In this document: piece by piece, positions 41,169 through 64,000 of the stretch | Layout: each line of letters opens with the position of its first letter | Numbering within the stretch: the stretch's first letter is position 1 | IMG/VR virus record: IMGVR_UViG_3300029206_000002 | Source: a virus | Direction: 5' to 3' (one strand) | Length of the DNA: 64,000 nucleotides | Notes under the pieces: generated by a model | The model's input: only the letters and a program-made list of their open reading frames with translations | Databases searched by the model: none | What the model was told of the DNA's origin: nothing | Made by a program: the position numbers and the translations under genes

Positions 41169-41472
41169 AATTAATATAATGTTGCATACTATCACTAGTT
41201 ATTTTAAACGTTTCAATTCTTTCAGAAAAATTACCATTTTCATCTGTAAATCCTACTGAATGTAAGAAAGAATAATCTTTATTATGTTTAAAAGCTTTAA
41301 ACATTTCTTTAATTGAATTTACTATAAACTTACGTTTTTTATTCCATTCAGTAAATTCTCCATGCAACAATACACTCACTAATTTGATTGGAATTAATAA
41401 TAACTTTCCAAGTATTAGAGCTAAATCAAAAGGTAATGCTATTACTTTACCTATAGTTTTTAATAGTTTCAT
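41134..41472 (-). CDS. Small membrane protein of 112 aa.
   Basis: Intact ORF with an N-terminal hydrophobic helix. Confidence 0.45.
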   Translation of the reverse strand: MKLLKTIGKVIALPFDLALILGKLLLIPIKLVSVLLHGEFTEWNKKRKFIVNSIKEMFKAFKHNKDYSFLHSVGFTDENGNFSERIETFKITSDSMQHYINYAKTSLKQESA

Positions 41473-42427
41473 TTAACCAATTTTTTATTTCTTCAAAGCT
41501 ATTTGCTTTAACAGCATCAGATACATCTTTAGCTTTGAATTTTTTGTTAATAAACATTGCTTCTAAGCCTGTTTCTCGGCTTAATTTGCGACTTCTTTTT
41601 ACTCCAGCTACATCTCTATCAAAAAGTATTATAATACGCTTAAAACGCGTCTTAAGTTGCTCTAATACGTCTTTAGGTAGAAATGTACTCTCTGAAGATG
41701 GAGAAACTGCTGGTATACCCATCTCATGCAAACACATAACATCTTTCATGGACTTTGTGATAAATAATATATCACCTTTCTGAGGCAACTGCTCATAGCC
41801 TTGGATATCATAGTCTGTAAGATTGTTTCTCCATTTAGTATATTTATCTGCTAATGGTCTATATATCTTAAAGTTATTATAGACCTTATATGCATACATT
41901 GGATTTTCTCGTTTATAAGTACCCTTTACTATGCCATTACATAAATAATATTTAATACTATTTACATTGAATTTCTTTAGAGTATTTATAGAAATATTGA
42001 ACTGTTTCCAGTAATTGATATCTACATCAGTAAATTCTTGACGTACTACACCAATTACTGTTTCAGTTGGCGGTATATATTGCTTAGAGCTAACGAGTTT
42101 AGTGTTATTAGTAATGTTTAACTTATCTACTATATCAGATAGTATATCATTATATTCTGTCTTACCAGTAAATAATGATACAAATTTAATTACATTACCA
42201 CATTCACCTGTTCCATGATCTTTAAAAAGTAGTTGTTTAGTACGTTTACTATAGTAAATACCAAAGGATGGATTTTTATCCTTCCTAAATGGACTATTGT
42301 ATATCATACCTACTTTAAATTGACCTATATATTTTGCATATATATCATATTCTGTTACTTTAGAAAGTATCCAATCTAGAGTAATGTTATCTGGGAGTTT
42401 TGCTCGCTTTCTACTATACATATGCAA
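41447..42427 (-). CDS. DnaG-like DNA primase with a zinc-ribbon and a TOPRIM domain.
   Basis: NSPFRKDKNPSFGIY...GECGNVIKF resembles the primase zinc-binding region. IIILFDRDVAGVKRSRK resembles a TOPRIM DxD motif. Confidence 0.6.
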   Translation of the reverse strand: MHMYSRKRAKLPDNITLDWILSKVTEYDIYAKYIGQFKVGMIYNSPFRKDKNPSFGIYYSKRTKQLLFKDHGTGECGNVIKFVSLFTGKTEYNDILSDIVDKLNITNNTKLVSSKQYIPPTETVIGVVRQEFTDVDINYWKQFNISINTLKKFNVNSIKYYLCNGIVKGTYKRENPMYAYKVYNNFKIYRPLADKYTKWRNNLTDYDIQGYEQLPQKGDILFITKSMKDVMCLHEMGIPAVSPSSESTFLPKDVLEQLKTRFKRIIILFDRDVAGVKRSRKLSRETGLEAMFINKKFKAKDVSDAVKANSFEEIKNWLNETIKNYR

Positions 42428-42440
42428 TCTGTTTTAGTTT

Positions 42441-42530
42441 GCTACTAGTCGTGGAATCGAACCACGCCTATCCAGAGATAGATTTTTATTTCTGCTGTGC
42501 AGGCTCACGCTTCCATAAATTATCTAATAT
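42441..42530 (-). ncRNA. tRNA-like element with a canonical T-arm (GGCGTGG TTCGATT CCACG) and a 3' acceptor strand. The 5' half cannot be folded by eye.
   Basis: Minus-strand T-loop TTCGATT with a 5-bp stem. A potential aTCTAtc loop (CTA) lies upstream but has no pairing stem. Intergenic between minus-strand genes. Confidence 0.35.
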
Positions 42531-48478: not shown

Positions 48479-50632
48479 TTAAAACAACGTTAGTTGTCTT
48501 GGTTTTAATTCTTCAACGATCTTTAACGCTTCCTTTAAATAGTAGCGATAATTGATCTTTCTTTCTTCTATAGGTTTATTATCAAATTTATTTAGTATAG
48601 TAACACCAGATGCAGTAAGTAGATTAGTATAGTCTACTCTAGTACCTTTAGTTATAATCTTTGAACTATAAGGTAATATCTGTTCTACATTAGAATTATA
48701 GTAAAACTGATTTGAATCTGTAGTTATTATACTTTCTCCTGTTTTGAGACATACAAGATATTGCGGTATCTCAACATCTCTATTTACTATTTTACATTTA
48801 TATAAATAAGGACCATTAGTAGATGCATAGAATCTATTGATTCTTTGTATCAGTTCTCCATTATATTCTACAGAGAATTTCTTATCTACTTTCTGGTAAG
48901 TAAGGAACTTCTTAATATCTTTACAATTGTAGATAGTATCTTTTACAGGAATACCATCAACAAAATAATCTCTAATAGCTTCTGGAATAATCTTTGCAGA
49001 CATTCCCTTACCAAGTAAAACCTTAGTAATAAACATACCTTTTTCTTTAATATAATCATCTTTAATCATATCTAAAGAAGTATAAGGCTTCTTTTTTTTA
49101 TTTAGAGCTTTTTCTGGTTCAGTTTCAAACAATTTCTTCATTGCTTGATAACCTTCTTTTACAGCTATATAATCATTAATAGCATACTGATACATAGCTT
49201 CAAAACGATCTTCCTCTAGGGTTAGTCTCGTTTGTTGTTCCCATTCCTTACATATACTTTGTAATTTTTCATACAGATTCTTCTTAAGAAGAACAAATAA
49301 ACCATCTGTATTTGCCTGTACTATTCTACAGCCAATATCAGATAATCTTTCTGCTAACATAAGTAGTAGTAATTGTCCGTTTATTCTAATCTGCATTACT
49401 GCAAATGGACTATAACAGAAATTATGTTCATTCTGTAGATTACCACTAAGACCATTTAATGCTAACTTAAGAGTTTTATCTTTAGTCTTAATACCGTTAT
49501 GTTTTGCTTCTATTCGTTCATCTTTAACTTGATTATAAACTTCTAGAAATTCAGGACCCAAATGTTTTGGGTAGAATTTATACTCTATTATCATACTAGG
49601 ATACAGAGATGCAACATCAATATCTATTAACATTTCATCTTCCCTAGGAACAATTATCTCAGGTTTATTTTCAGAGTGAATACCACCAACTCCTACAGAA
49701 TATTTTAATCCTCTAAATACGAATTTGTTTTCATATCCTTTTCTACCTGGTGATACTATCTGTTTCTTCATATCAGATAGTACATTACGAAGTATAGGAT
49801 CTTTATATTCTATATAAGGCAATATTACTTTGTTTAGGTCTATAACATCTGCTGGGCTTCTTAAATCTTTAATATCCCACCATGATAAACCAGTCTTTTC
49901 AAGATATTTCTGCGTTAGAATTTTCATTCCAATGTTTACTCCATCTTTACTTAGTACTCTTACTTTATATTCATCTTCGATAGCTATTCTTAATTCTATA
50001 TCTTCAGAACACAGATTTAATAATTTTTCAGTAGAATTAACGTCATTCACATTATACTCAATCATCTCTTCTATTCTATCTTCTTCTAGAAACTTATTAA
50101 AGTCTCCATTAAATTCTAGAACATTAGGATATTGCATAGTTACTTGCATTTCCTTCAATCCAACACGCAATTTCTGTGAATATAACATAGTAAGTATATC
50201 AAATGAATCATACCATACTTGATATTTCCATTTTTTCCACGCTTCTATGTTGTCATCTGCTTGAGATGTAGTTATAGTTCTACTTAAGTTAAAAATACTA
50301 TCACATATTCTTAGATATGGTTTATTTTTAAGTATATCATAATAATCTATTATATAGTTAATAATAGGATTATCATAATGTAAATTATTATATCCTGCAA
50401 AGATTTTATTTGAATCAATTTGAGTTTCAGTAGTATAGAGATCTCCAAATTTTAATGGTGCATTAATATTTGGTACACGAAAGAAATCAACTAATTCTGA
50501 TAATTGATCTTTTCTGCTTGATATCTCAAATTTATGAAACTTCCCTGATTCAGTATTCTTTGCTGTGCAATGAAATACATTTGGGAAAACTTCAATATCA
50601 TAGACATATACTGTTTTTCCTCTTATCTTCAT
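48479..50632 (-). CDS. Family B DNA polymerase.
   Basis: Exo I YDIEVFPN, Exo II YNNLHYDNPII, Exo III YNVNDV, motif A DVASLYPS, motif B KLALNGLSG and motif C ANTDG are all present in the canonical order. Confidence 0.8.
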   Translation of the reverse strand: MKIRGKTVYVYDIEVFPNVFHCTAKNTESGKFHKFEISSRKDQLSELVDFFRVPNINAPLKFGDLYTTETQIDSNKIFAGYNNLHYDNPIINYIIDYYDILKNKPYLRICDSIFNLSRTITTSQADDNIEAWKKWKYQVWYDSFDILTMLYSQKLRVGLKEMQVTMQYPNVLEFNGDFNKFLEEDRIEEMIEYNVNDVNSTEKLLNLCSEDIELRIAIEDEYKVRVLSKDGVNIGMKILTQKYLEKTGLSWWDIKDLRSPADVIDLNKVILPYIEYKDPILRNVLSDMKKQIVSPGRKGYENKFVFRGLKYSVGVGGIHSENKPEIIVPREDEMLIDIDVASLYPSMIIEYKFYPKHLGPEFLEVYNQVKDERIEAKHNGIKTKDKTLKLALNGLSGNLQNEHNFCYSPFAVMQIRINGQLLLLMLAERLSDIGCRIVQANTDGLFVLLKKNLYEKLQSICKEWEQQTRLTLEEDRFEAMYQYAINDYIAVKEGYQAMKKLFETEPEKALNKKKKPYTSLDMIKDDYIKEKGMFITKVLLGKGMSAKIIPEAIRDYFVDGIPVKDTIYNCKDIKKFLTYQKVDKKFSVEYNGELIQRINRFYASTNGPYLYKCKIVNRDVEIPQYLVCLKTGESIITTDSNQFYYNSNVEQILPYSSKIITKGTRVDYTNLLTASGVTILNKFDNKPIEERKINYRYYLKEALKIVEELKPRQLTLF

Positions 50633-50647
50633 AGCGTATAAATTTAG

Positions 50648-50760
50648 TGGAGTATATGGGAATCGAACCCATGATGCCGATTGGTTGCAGCACTATAAAT
50701 AGTGTATTAGAGTCTCTCTAATATTCCTCCCTGTACCCTGCGCTTGCCTACTAGCTGAAT
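50648..50760 (-). ncRNA. tRNA-like element with the T-arm ATGGG TTCGATT CCCAT and an acceptor strand ending near CCA. The 5' half is atypical.
   Basis: Canonical T-loop on the minus strand in the polB upstream spacer. The only complementary 5' strand (ggggtat) lies about 115 nt upstream, implying an insertion or an aberrant structure. Confidence 0.3.
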
Positions 50761-53063: not shown

Positions 53064-53642
53064 TTACTCGTCAATGCTCTTGTAGTAAGCAGTAGTGTCG
53101 TCCTTAGTAATCTTATTGATTTGTTCCAGAGAAGCTCCCTGATTTGCCAATTCATCAATAAAATTGTTAAGATCAGTCAAATTACTCTGATTCAACTGAG
53201 TGACAACTTCTGTTACCATCTTAACATTCCAGAACGGAGACCGTTCTCCAGTTGCTTCAAACTTCAAGATAGCATCTTGAACATCTTTCGGACCAGCTTT
53301 CAATACGATATCTACATCTGCCCGTAAATCAAACTGCAACTTTTCGTCATTATTAAACATAATAACAATCTTACCATTTGCAGTCCGCACGATATCTACG
53401 TTGAACAAATCAACAGTTTCAATCATATACTTCTTCATCGGATTTGCAAGTACAAGACCCGGCATATCACCAGCTAGTTTCTTCTTGTAATTCAAATCCA
53501 AATAATCACTTACGGGGATTGCCAACCGCCGACCAACTAAAGCACGGCTAAACGCAATTACTTTAGTACGTAACTGAGTAATTTCTTGCTGAGTAAAACC
53601 TTCTGGATTTTTGAACACGCTTTCATATTTTGTTGTTTCCAT
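53064..53642 (-). CDS. Hypothetical protein of 192 aa.
   Basis: Intact ORF. Confidence 0.45.
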   Translation of the reverse strand: METTKYESVFKNPEGFTQQEITQLRTKVIAFSRALVGRRLAIPVSDYLDLNYKKKLAGDMPGLVLANPMKKYMIETVDLFNVDIVRTANGKIVIMFNNDEKLQFDLRADVDIVLKAGPKDVQDAILKFEATGERSPFWNVKMVTEVVTQLNQSNLTDLNNFIDELANQGASLEQINKITKDDTTAYYKSIDE

Positions 53643-55795
53643 AATTTCTCCTTTCTTGATTCCGTGGTTGATTCCACCTATGGAGTAAGTTAATACTAAG
53701 TTAATTTAAAAAGTAAGCTATAGAGTTCTTTTATCTAAGTGGAATAGCATCTAATATCTATTCGTTTATTAAAAACTTAAAAACCACTTCTTGTATTCAA
53801 ACAGTAAAACTCTATAACGAAATTCTGCTAAGATTTGATAAGTAATCTGAAAAACTATAAGATAAGCTTTCGTATTATTAACATTACTACTAGAACGTGA
53901 TGTTATTACTTCACTCGGCATTCCCCGTAGGACTTTACTCATGAGACAGATGAGTCAGCCGTTCTTCATAAAATTATCAATACTAAACTATGAAAAGATA
54001 TGTAATTCGACATCTGAAAATCGAATGCTATGCTAGTTAATACCTAAAAAGGTACAACGGGACTCCAACGGTAGGAGATTTATACCCATCAAATAACATT
54101 ATAACTGAAATTATCTGAAAATCGAATGCTATGCTAGTTTCTGATTGTTTAAAGAGCCTAACAGTAACTATAACGTGCTCTTTTTCCTGTTATAGTAAGG
54201 AGTACTGTATATGGTTCATAACCTACAACTGTTACTTCACTATCGGTAATACTTCTACCGAATTTTATTTTGAGCTGTTTATGTTTCAAAACACCCACTC
54301 TATAGCCTAATAGTTTATTCTAAGGCTGCGTGTACTTACGACTTTGTTCTTATTCTGCACATAACTTTAGGATTTCCACCTATCATCCTTTAATGTAAGG
54401 AATCAGCGTCACTTTACATATATTGTTGCGCAATATACTTTAAATGTTTCAAATGTCAGCAATTATATTGTACAGTCGAGGGTGGCTCGGATTTACTTTC
54501 GTCTTCTTATCACTACTCGTCCTAAAACCTACCATTGAACTTCCTCATTAGTTAAATTAAACATGTTTATTCTCTCGTGAATAGAGACTTCCTAAATAGA
54601 TTTACATTCTGTCACTTCCCGTTAAGACTACTATTTAGTGCAATGCACAGATTTTTCTCCGGTCTGCTTCGTGTCCGTCTCTTAATGTGTCTGCTTCTCT
54701 TCAACCTAGGAGTAGGGCGATGCTCACTTTCACATATACTCTTAAGGATAGAGTATCGCACCTTGTGCAAATTTGATAAAACTCCAGTTATGCTTCTGGA
54801 TAAAATTATTTAGTACTTCTAAGCTTTATGTCTTCCGCTTAGTATTGAAATAGTGTTATTGCGCACTTCATCCGCTAGTTATCTTTATGTTCCTGTTGCA
54901 AAGCACTCTAGGTTTATACTCAGATAAGATAACAACTGAGTTTATTATAATACTACTTGAATTCACATACTCCTTATTTCCTAAAGAGGTCCGTTGCAGG
55001 ATTCCTTATTTATTAATATCGGATCATTGCTACTCAGCCAATAGGCACACAATCTACTACTCACTTTGTCACTCTATCCCTCTATACTGGAGTGTATAGT
55101 AATACAAGCTTAGGATTAGCTATGTACTGATTAACATAACATTGTGCATAGGCTTTACGCCTAATCCAGGTAATCTATCAATATTTTTTCAATAAGTAGT
55201 GCTATAATATTATAATTAAGTACCTTCATATATACTATCTCTAAACTTATTAAGTTACAATATAACTGTTTAGATAAGTATAGAACACTATACTGACATT
55301 TTTATATAGTCTATGCTATAAAGGGGAGTTTGGAGCTACCCTAGAGCGTTATATGCTCGATAATGTTCAGCACGTAGTCTTGGACACTACGATTTGTTGG
55401 GCATCATCGTGTTTATTACTCCTTCTTGATTCAAACTATGATAAGTCTGCGAGTAACTTAAGAGGATTTCGTTCCCCTTGTACTGTTTAATTTTGTAGAC
55501 TGCTCTCTACTAATTGCGTCTTCTGTTTCTGTCTCCAGTCGGTTCTCACCAAAAACAAGAGGGTTGTACACGCTCTCCCTCTATCTTATTGCCTCTTCAG
55601 TTTATAGATAGTATATAAACACAATAAGTTATTATACTTTCAGTAATAGCCTATAGTTGTAGCTATACTCTATTCCTACTAATATTCTGTACTATCTTAA
55701 TTTTAAGAAAGCAATCTAACCATTTACTTTCTAATCCTTTGATTTAGATATCTCTGGATATACACCATTATAGCTCTATAATCGCATTGGCTGTT
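53643..55795 (-). other. 2.15-kb ORF-free region. The plus strand is pyrimidine-rich, so the minus-strand transcript would be purine-rich. Internal 27-bp direct repeats sit at 54012-54038 and 54113-54139. It is a candidate large noncoding RNA or regulatory/origin region.
   Basis: No ORF of 60 aa or more on the minus strand. Eye translation finds all three stop types in every frame. The GC content is higher than in the flanking sequence. Confidence 0.4.
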
Positions 55796-56194
55796 CTAGT
55801 TGCGACTCAGATTTATCTTCTCTGATTGTTGTTGTTTCAGTCTTTGGAGAATATCCGTACAAGTGGTTTTATTCTCTTTAACTGATGGCAGTTCTCTTAC
55901 CTTAATGTATTTAGGTACTTCCTTCTCTACAACAGAAGTTAGATAGATGATACTGTCTTTCTTTTTGATTTCAACATTGATATTTTGTTCTGGGTTGCTT
56001 TGTCCATTTAATTTTATAGCGTTATTGTTCAAATTAATATCAATATTAAAGTCTTTTGTCCGAGGTACATCTGTGAACTTCGGAATCACATACTCGTGTG
56101 CGGTGGCGGTATTTGTATAGTTAGTTACAAATCCTACATATCCACCGAAAGCTAGCATTGCTAGCGTAAACAAAACTGTTGGTTTTTTACTCAT
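55796..56194 (-). CDS. Small secreted or membrane-anchored protein of 132 aa. Its stop codon is TAG.
   Basis: N-terminal hydrophobic segment MSKKPTVLFTLAMLAFGGYVGFV. The stop is TAG. Confidence 0.5.
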   Translation of the reverse strand: MSKKPTVLFTLAMLAFGGYVGFVTNYTNTATAHEYVIPKFTDVPRTKDFNIDINLNNNAIKLNGQSNPEQNINVEIKKKDSIIYLTSVVEKEVPKYIKVRELPSVKENKTTCTDILQRLKQQQSEKINLSRN

Positions 56195-61734: not shown

Positions 61735-61762
61735 ACTTTTTGTTTTTAATTTTGATAATTTG

Positions 61763-61836
61763 TAATACTAATAGGACTCGAACCTATAACTCAACCTTAT
61801 CAGTGTTGTGATGTTACCCGTTACATCCATAGTATT
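61763..61836 (-). tRNA. tRNA-Ile (anticodon GAU), 74 nt.
   Basis: A cloverleaf was folded by eye. The acceptor aatacta/tagtatt is a perfect 7 bp. The D-arm is gatg-taacgggtaa-catc with GG. The anticodon loop is ctGATaa. The T-arm is atagg-ttcgagt-cctat. There is one A.G mismatch at the base of the anticodon stem. Confidence 0.7.
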
Positions 61837-62056: not shown

Positions 62057-62443
62057 TCAATATACTTTTATTTCTATAGGATTATCTCCAAAACACATAT
62101 TTCTTTTATCAAATGGTACATAATGAGTATATAAGAATCCTGCATCATTAAATAGTTTAGCCGTACCTATTGGTACACTAATAGAATTATTATGTTTTGG
62201 ATCTATCCACCAACTTCTTTTTGTTGTTTCATGAACATATCTAACAGGTTTATTATAGAATAGATGTTCACCCCACATATCTGCTGCAATATAGCTCATG
62301 ATAAATAATTTTAAGTTGTAAATATAAAGAGTTTTGCACACCTCTGCGCCTTCATATCCTAGCAGACCGGATAACGCCTCAATTAGAGAGATATACATCA
62401 TACACGAGTTTTCATATATCATTGGGTTGATATAATAGTGCAA
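62057..62443 (-). CDS. Hypothetical protein of 128 aa.
   Basis: Intact ORF. Confidence 0.45.
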   Translation of the reverse strand: MHYYINPMIYENSCMMYISLIEALSGLLGYEGAEVCKTLYIYNLKLFIMSYIAADMWGEHLFYNKPVRYVHETTKRSWWIDPKHNNSISVPIGTAKLFNDAGFLYTHYVPFDKRNMCFGDNPIEIKVY

Positions 62444-62529
62444 TATACTCTTTTAGTAGTATAGAGAGTGATCAAACTCTCTATACTTGATATGTAATCC
62501 TAAAGTAATAGTATATACTGTTGATTATG

Positions 62530-63414: not shown

Positions 63415-64000
63415 AATTTTTTGATTTTTAATTGTTAATAATTGATTTATTTAAGTGAATGAATTAATCTTAAAAAGTATCTAATAAGCTTCTGCGATAG
63501 ATTTCATCTCTTTCTTCTTTGATATCTATTTGCATTTTAATGATAATACTTATTAGTTCTTCTTTTGTTTTCTTTTTTAATTCTTTTTTTGTCCACATAA
63601 TAGTAAAGAAATAGAAAGTTATACTATCTATTCGTACGCCTTATTCGATAGCTAGCCCTTTTCCTTCTCCTGACCTTAAATAAGGTTGACCGTTGTATAG
63701 TCCGTAGGTATTAATCACCTTTAGGGGTCTGGCGTTATAACCTTCTGTGTTGATTGGATTCTATCATAACTACTTAATTAGTAATTCTTAGTTAAACAAT
63801 AGCTCTTTCCCTTTTATACGGTTGCATTTTAGAATGTCTAACTCTCTTTTTAGACTGATATTCAGCTGCTTTTCCTGATTGCTTAGAACCTGGAAAATGA
63901 GATTCTTTATAGGTCTTTCCCATGATTATAACACTCTAATTGCTTGTACTAAAAGGTCAAAGATATAAGCGCATCCCTTTTTGTTGAGATACTCGATTGT

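Follow-up and report, generated by a model that had tools for sequence, protein, structure and literature searches.

The question raised by this locus is what a gene-dense phage holds in a stretch of its genome that is free of open reading frames (ORFs). The stretch occupies positions 53643-55795 of a viral DNA record of 64,000 nucleotides (nt) (IMG/VR record IMGVR_UViG_3300029206_000002), hereafter called the window, of which ORFs cover a fraction of 0.896. Across the region and its flanks the sequence matches that of 'uncultured phage cr6_1' (NC_055894; Crassvirales, Suoliviridae, Bearivirinae), which comes from human faeces, at about 98% identity. No viruses are more abundant in the human gut than the Crassvirales, and their biology is mostly unknown. 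An original prediction, made from the letters alone, had proposed either a giant non-coding RNA or a replication or regulatory locus at this position. The comparative analysis presented here supports the first proposal: the sequence is conserved in five subfamilies, it is under purifying selection that shows no codon periodicity, and its covarying helices withstand internal and external controls. We consider it probable, with moderate confidence, that the gap represents a structured non-coding RNA element of Suoliviridae phages that is new and very large.

The lack of coding capacity that had been predicted for the island was confirmed. The longest ORF within the gap is at most 78 amino acids (aa) on either strand, and stops of all three kinds occur in each of the six frames, totalling 43-64 per frame (TAA 23-34 times; TAA, TAG and TGA each 7-34 times). 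The two halves of the gap, separated only by a chance 78-aa ORF on the plus strand, are the two largest ORF-free stretches of the window, and the gap agrees with the generic description of non-coding RNA as sequence without coding potential. An unrecognised coding sequence, concealed by an unusual code, by introns or frameshifts, or by division into many small ORFs, has to be weighed at this point, since TAG read-through occurs in the late genes of this phage. The plus-strand half (positions 1-37000 of the window; late and structural genes) is open only with TAG read-through, with which 2-kb bins rise from about 500 to about 2000 nt of open frame, and the late genes of the relatives cr4_1 and cr7_1 are likewise recoded. 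In addition, crAss-like phages are known to carry introns (PMC7886860). Against this, the neighbouring genes in the minus-strand half of the window, which includes the gap, use the standard code, and the gap stayed closed when all single and double stop reassignments were tried, the maximal open stretch being at most 537 nt. Group I and group II introns gave no match at E <= 10, and in all relatives each flanking ORF is a complete gene of its own. With all three stops in every frame and with a diversity that lacks 3-nt periodicity, as described below, hidden coding appears very improbable. An obligatory link between the element and TAG recoding is also disfavoured, as cr55_1 carries the element and yet has zero in-frame TAG in eight large late genes, which follow the standard code.

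ORF-free gaps of 1.85-2.5 kb occupy the same syntenic position in every Suoliviridae genome examined, covering the subfamilies Bearivirinae, Uncouvirinae, Loutivirinae, Boorivirinae and Oafivirinae and sources from human, macaque, pig and rabbit, and all of them are ORF-free under each code tested. Unannotated gaps were found in cr114_1, cr125_1, cr115_1 and cr118_1 (Uncouvirinae), cr4_1 and cr60_1 (Loutivirinae), cr55_1 and cr10_1 (Boorivirinae), and cr7_1, cr130_1 (macaque) and cr273_1 (pig) of the Oafivirinae, as the name is spelled in the records. Ordinary protein genes at this position in related phages, which had been named in advance as the finding that would make the sequence a decayed remnant, were present in none of the relatives examined. 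On one side of the gap every genome carries an ECF-type sigma factor and proteins of about 120 aa, 460-570 aa and about 130 aa, and on the other side two proteins of about 180 aa followed by the DNA polymerase, the location thus being between the sigma-factor (transcription) block and the replication genes.

Flanking proteins from different subfamilies have only about 26% identity; the gaps nevertheless share about ten collinear nucleotide blocks of 72-85% identity, which are better conserved than those proteins and whose order and spacing are kept over 1.4 kb across subfamilies. A profile search with nhmmer ties the gaps of Boorivirinae and Oafivirinae to the same element, and in a 23-sequence alignment the core (55700-54280) reaches a conservation of 0.55-0.8 vs 0.3-0.5 in the flanking coding sequences. 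A scan of IMG/VR with a 17-nt motif returned at least 120 loci, with the element present in 97 among the 120 matches listed. Among GTDB genomes it was never found in a bacterial chromosome; its carriers were crAss-like contigs of about 98-100 kb, a number of them from the gut of rabbits, and two short contigs measuring 3.6 and 7.8 kb.

Nucleotide diversity (pi) was computed from 50 close relatives, 90-99.6% identical. The 1420-nt core has a pi of 0.020, which by codon phase amounts to 0.0199, 0.0188 and 0.0215, so that 3-nt periodicity is absent; the flanking genes show codon periodicity, with values by codon position of 0.019, 0.006 and 0.069 in one of them. Third codon positions in the neighbourhood have a pi of 0.035-0.09, and the diversity of the core is two to four times lower. 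Owing to this low diversity without periodicity, the core is non-coding and under purifying selection, which therefore argues for the exclusion of decayed protein genes (pseudogenes) or junk spacer. Such decay could be read into one copy of a module described further below, which resembles an initiation region followed by an NTG triplet and an open frame of 6-10 codons and could be the relic of a lost paralogue of the downstream gene. However, the region is more conserved than its flanking genes, its size and position are kept across five subfamilies, and covarying helices are enriched in it relative to real coding DNA; decay or spacer is hence largely refuted and hardly credible.

Conserved secondary structure was interrogated with a covariation statistic that needs no structure prediction, namely the number of runs of at least 4 stacked column pairs that are at least 95% canonical and have at least 3 pairs changed on both sides. 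The same run count in parallel orientation, in which a helix is impossible, served as the internal null. In the element of 10 Loutivirinae genomes 9 antiparallel runs were counted against 0 parallel runs, whereas coding DNA of the same genomes gave 1 vs 1 upstream and 1 vs 2 downstream. With all 22 Loutivirinae the count rose to 16 antiparallel runs (85 pairs) vs 1 parallel, and the Uncouvirinae element yielded 7 vs 1, with 1 vs 0 and 0 vs 1 in its coding flanks. Across clades, runs of at least 4 pairs numbered 8 antiparallel vs 1 parallel; three-pair covarying runs (16 vs 14) were rejected as evidence, and only the longer runs discriminate. A curated structure of 22 pairs at 54550-54398 was compared with shuffled and slid controls: 95.6% of cells pair in it vs 76.4% after shuffling (0/500 reach the observed value) and 27-48% after sliding, and its covariation score is 0.47 vs 0.17 and 0.02-0.10, respectively. 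Covariation analysis across related phages, which had been proposed as a check, hence reveals conserved structure beyond the parallel-orientation, coding-flank, shuffle and slide controls, and the element is a dense series of local hairpins and sub-domains with covarying helices.

The coordinates of the element, its parts and the adjoining genes are compiled in Table 1. The pairs of the hairpin at 55559..55581 include the types GC/AU/UA and GU/UA/AU/CG. One pair in the nested helices of R1 is evenly divided, 16 distinct sequences having G-C and the other 16 having A-U, and the R1 model matches in Boorivirinae and Oafivirinae. The outer helix of module copy 1 is 100% canonical and covaries as UACUC/GAGUA, UAUCC/GGGAU and CAUUC/GGAAU.

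Table 1 Features of the ORF-free element and its adjoining genes (window coordinates; motifs in minus-strand sense)
Feature	Coordinates	Strand	Remarks
Upstream 132-aa gene	55796..56194	minus	Syntenic in all relatives
Whole ORF-free element, 2153 nt	53643..55795	minus	From the stop of the upstream 132-aa gene to the ATG of the downstream 192-aa gene
Conserved core, about 1.4 kb	54281..55700	minus	Collinear conserved blocks with variable hairpins between them
Hairpin GAGGG-(AGAGCGUGUACAA)-CCCUC, conserved loop	55559..55581	minus	Alignment columns 22-26/40-44; 4/5 pairs with double-sided changes
YGAGAACCG block	55540..55548	minus	Near-invariant
Hairpin GGGGA-AACGAAAU-UCCUC	55462..55477	minus	Covaries across clades; 5 pairs, 4 covarying
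Module copy 1	55405..55460	minus	UUACUC - inner hairpin with AUCA loop - AAUCAAGAA - GGAGUA - AAACACG(A/G/U)UG
Hairpin CGUAGU-GUCCAAG-ACUACG	55373..55391	minus	Compensatory CGUGGU/ACCACG within the window's clade (rows L019, L053, L058)
Hairpin with conserved CUCCAAA loop	55323..55341	minus	Stems AGCGGG/CUCGCU, ACCGGU/AUCGGU, UGGGGG/CUCGCA
Sub-domain R1, most conserved	54398..54550	minus	GGGAAGUYCAAUGRYAG...GAGYCACCC nested helices, CGCAA hairpin and ACGCUGA
8-bp hairpin with invariant CGCAA loop	54418..54438	minus	Stem wholly replaced between clades; all 5 inner pairs with double-sided changes
Hairpin UAGG-UGGAAAU-CCUA	54368..54382	minus	Pair types UA/GC, AU/GC, GC/UA
101-nt tandem duplication	54012..54139	minus	Marked by two exact 27-bp repeats; window's clade only; least conserved part
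Block J, 3' conserved island with hairpin ACUCAU...AUGAGU	53840..53969	minus	Shared with Uncouvirinae, 77-85% identity
Module copy 2	53640..53691	minus	Architecture as copy 1; ends at the ATG of the 192-aa gene
Downstream 192-aa gene, candidate protein partner	53064..53642	minus	Family restricted to these phages; confident structure model

Which strand would carry such an RNA can be approached through imperfect pairs. In helices defined by Watson-Crick pairs only, the exceptions are G·U in minus-strand sense vs A·C in 36 vs 14 column pairs overall, and one U·G wobble within the 54550-54398 domain is kept in 30/32 sequences. Both observations appear to favour a minus-strand RNA, co-directional with the neighbouring genes. 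Its core would measure about 1.4 kb, extending to about 2.1 kb, and it would comprise numerous local hairpins whose loops are conserved, with conserved single-stranded linkers between them.

The reading that competes most seriously with one folded RNA takes the region for a giant leader acting in cis, or for a series of local RNA elements independent of one another, such as small RNAs, riboregulators or protein-binding hairpins, which we regard as possible though unlikely. It is consistent with the observation that the supported helices all span less than about 150 nt, and with the tolerance of lineage-specific hairpin insertions and of the 101-nt duplication; moreover, module copy 2 overlaps the downstream start codon, so that at least the 3' end of the element belongs to that messenger RNA (mRNA). 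It accords less well with the fixed order and spacing of the about ten blocks over 1.4 kb across subfamilies, with the occurrence of a single minus-strand terminator-like site in the gap, and with the conserved single-stranded linkers, which are typical of junctions in large RNAs. The missing long-range helices also weigh less than they might, as the search for long-range pairs was based on MAFFT alignments of about 20 sequences and has little power.

Several results weigh against a large structured RNA, or at least lend it no strength. A convincing covarying helix spanning more than 150 nt was not found, which leaves a single global fold putative. The preference for G·U over A·C is moderate and amounts to 8 vs 8 in the window's own low-diversity clade, the Bearivirinae. 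RNAalifold predicted many hairpins with compensatory changes in the element, but these counts carry no weight because the coding flanks of the same genomes behave alike, and the strand asymmetry in folding energy was set aside on the same ground, being driven by composition and likewise present in the coding flanks. In cr118 the gap is present with only marginal sequence similarity. Assignment of a promoter or terminator to the element was unsuccessful, the scans for consensus promoters and terminators being uninformative. Concerning the duplicated module introduced above, the window's own copy 2 is a weak match when taken alone (17.3 bits, E = 0.21), and the 192-aa protein is rich in acidic residues and without a recognisable RNA-binding fold. 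Column-shuffle z-scores, also computed, were uninformative as their null collapses to an energy of about zero.

A third explanation places the function in the DNA, as an origin of replication, a site for packaging or a region dense in promoters and operators, whose hairpins would form cruciforms or single-stranded DNA structures. The location just upstream of the replication module speaks in its favour; covariation alone cannot separate DNA from RNA hairpins, and 5/6 terminator-like sites of the region lie on the plus strand, some of them coinciding with structural hairpins of the element, with 1 such site on the minus strand inside the gap. Yet the signs of an origin, which formed the other half of the original prediction, were not seen. 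GC skew runs monotonically across the element and changes sign only at about 37-38 kb, where gene orientation flips; there are neither iterons nor tandem arrays, and Tandem Repeats Finder reports only a 16-nt repeat. Of the marks by which an origin is known, namely an inflection of the skew, repeats of the iteron or DnaA-box type and an unwinding element rich in AT, none was recognised, and the GC content is not below that of the flanks. The predicted 27-bp direct repeat is real and exact (54012-54038 and 54113-54139, spacing 101 nt), but it marks the tandem duplication confined to the window's clade and was rejected as an iteron. Known origins span some hundreds of bp, whereas the hairpins and their conserved loops extend here over 1.4-2 kb, and the asymmetry of G·U over A·C together with the conserved U·G wobble is unexpected for duplex DNA. 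A DNA-level element is accordingly improbable in our estimation.

Three further cues that had first drawn attention to the gap are uninformative. Its GC content, described as higher, is 0.338 vs 0.322 and 0.347 in the flanking genes; the plus strand, described as pyrimidine-rich, has a purine fraction of 0.444 vs 0.437 and 0.422 in the flanks; and the terminator-like hairpin at 54160-54196 received no terminator call on either strand. In one close relative (L040 5404-5632) the 101-nt unit is present in three copies vs two in the window, a copy-number polymorphism in the variable part.

Returning to the interpretation as a structured RNA, a possible clue to its role is provided by the module found twice in this locus, once in the core and once at the start of the downstream gene. 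The covariance model R2, trained on the core copies (copy 1) only, matches copy 2 at the extreme 3' edge of the gap in 6/6 genomes (17-38 bits) and in 3/3 Oafivirinae (about 27 bits), and copy 2 is 91-93% identical over about 44 nt between subfamilies. Judged from the sequences, this identical placement in 9/9 genomes cannot be due to chance. The other gene leaders of this phage are A-rich and without GGAG, and the module motif is absent from them. By R2, therefore, an operator-like copy at a translation-initiation region resembles the core site in 9/9 genomes, as mimicry would have it. The duplication suggests, by analogy, that a protein partner exists and regulates its own synthesis. In the likeliest mechanism, a protein of the phage, perhaps the 192-aa product itself, would bind the core module of the RNA, and in excess would bind the look-alike module on its own mRNA and thereby repress translation, as ribosomal proteins do with mimics of ribosomal RNA (rRNA); binding of both modules is proposed because the arrangement resembles the autogenous control of ribosomal proteins. 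In its fullest form, which we offer as a doubtful and speculative extension, a ribonucleoprotein would be built on an RNA of about 1.5-2 kb, RNA mimicry would link its assembly to translation of the gene that opens the replication module, and it would act as a phage-specific RNA machine or scaffold at the switch from early or middle transcription to replication.

Directly after copy 1 (~55412-55385, minus strand) an NTG triplet stands at a fixed position, being ATG in Bearivirinae and Loutivirinae, GTG in Uncouvirinae and TTG in cr55, and it is followed by an open frame of 6-10 codons whose sequence is unconserved (MMPNKS* in the window). This frame could be a start-stop mini-ORF or the relic of an initiation region. 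With respect to the adjoining proteins, a role of the 192-aa protein as a LAGLIDADG or group I intron maturase was rejected, the alpha-beta-beta-alpha-beta-beta-alpha fold not being found in it. The flanking proteins returned zero sequence matches in Pfam, PHROGs and PDB, except for the ECF-type sigma factor further upstream, and a search with the upstream 571-aa protein retrieved near-identical sequences only. The gene immediately upstream encodes 132 aa in the window vs 157 aa as annotated in cr6_1 (55723-55795; L001 8324-8794), its 3' end thus differing between near-identical genomes, and the 95 nt that adjoin it show a hint of codon-phase diversity (0.006, 0.025, 0.031).

In public records, small 'hypothetical protein' ORFs are annotated inside the element (L201 12403-12885; L002 6596-6757; L190 3607-3792), one of those annotated, in cr7_1, being antisense to it. 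They overlap conserved RNA blocks and are probably spurious. Complete crAss-like genomes of about 98-100 kb were encountered in metagenome-assembled genomes labelled Gastranaerophilaceae, Bacilli (rabbit), Sphaerochaeta and Clostridium (L191-L199), and the assembly of a Thauera isolate includes a 3.6-kb crAss-like contig at 1.2x coverage; these look like mis-binning and contamination.

The wider genome contains other non-coding RNA features. Two orphan RNA motifs, RAGATH-7-assoc (62326-62453, minus, 139.6 bits) and RAGATH-9 (63612-63757, minus, 122.6 bits), lie upstream near the sole transfer RNA (tRNA) detected in the 64-kb window, Ile-GAT at 61762-61836, and transfer-messenger RNA (tmRNA) is annotated in the equivalent neighbourhood of cr114, cr7, cr130 and cr273; non-coding RNAs abound in this part of the genomes of Suoliviridae. 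No suppressor tRNA was detected in the window. Sequences resembling a tRNA T-arm (GGTTCGATTCC) occur at ~50656-50673 (-) and ~42440-42470 (-), in the leaders of the 717-aa ORF (48479-50632) and of ORF 41447-42427, respectively. The former gives an 18-nt match to a tmRNA/tRNA T-arm (E = 0.006) and the latter no Rfam match, and neither ARAGORN nor Rfam finds a complete tRNA at these sites; a hidden suppressor tRNA there was rejected, the sites being T-arm fragments only. In cr115_1 a tRNA-Arg is found at the equivalent position, adjoining the DNA polymerase gene. A reverse transcriptase is annotated among the tail genes of cr55_1 (L205 37750-39075), possibly part of a diversity-generating retroelement and unrelated to the element.

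An element of about 2 kb that is present family-wide under purifying selection makes up 2% of a tightly packed genome and must therefore matter to the phage. It is left unannotated, or is spuriously annotated with small ORFs, in public records, and full-text searches of the crAss-like phage literature did not find a description of it; an account of long non-coding regions is absent from Yutin et al. 2021, its preprint and the 2023 review. If the element is one molecule of RNA, it would take the structured RNAs of bacteria and phages, ribosomal ones excepted, to sizes well beyond GOLLD, and if the ribonucleoprotein outlined above is real, no larger class of such RNAs would be known from bacteria or their viruses. 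The module common to the RNA core and to the start site of the neighbouring gene offers a concrete testable hypothesis, and the conserved blocks could serve as family-specific markers.

Kinship with known RNA families, for which GOLLD, ROOL, HEARO and introns had been suggested for checking, was not supported. A cmscan of 53300-56100 with all 4227 families of Rfam 15 gave nothing at gathering score, and at E <= 10 it returned two chance-level matches only, TtnuCD26 (21.9 bits) and IMES-1 (14.6 bits), so that none of the named families is matched even at that threshold; membership in GOLLD, ROOL, OLE, HEARO or raiA was rejected on the Rfam covariance models. GOLLD measures about 800 nt and ROOL about 580 nt. 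The element is two to three times longer than these RNAs, and only local helices are supported in it; its place is always the one separating the transcription module from the replication module, not one beside tRNAs, and its module is duplicated on the start site of a neighbouring gene. It resembles them in being large, non-coding, borne by phages or prophages, conserved in secondary structure, variable in its insertions and of unknown function (PMC12286853, PMC5737381), and its window too has orphan RNA motifs and a tRNA nearby (RAGATH-7-assoc, RAGATH-9, tRNA-Ile). The RAGATH motifs themselves share with it the genome, the minus strand, discovery by comparative genomics and an unknown function, although at 130-170 nt they are more than ten times smaller, and the element is not in Rfam 15 (PMC5737381).

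ColE1 RNA II, the origin transcripts of T7 and T4 and the packaging RNA of phi29 are likewise structured RNAs of phages or plasmids, and the element heads a replication module; those RNAs, however, measure 120-550 nt, and the element has neither an origin signature nor Rfam similarity to them. In ribosomal-protein operons the operator on the mRNA imitates the site at which the protein binds rRNA. The putative RNA of the present locus differs in being a phage-specific orphan rather than rRNA. As in those operons and in the operators of T4 gp32, gp43 and RegA, the structure at a translation-initiation region resembles a site in the adjacent large RNA.

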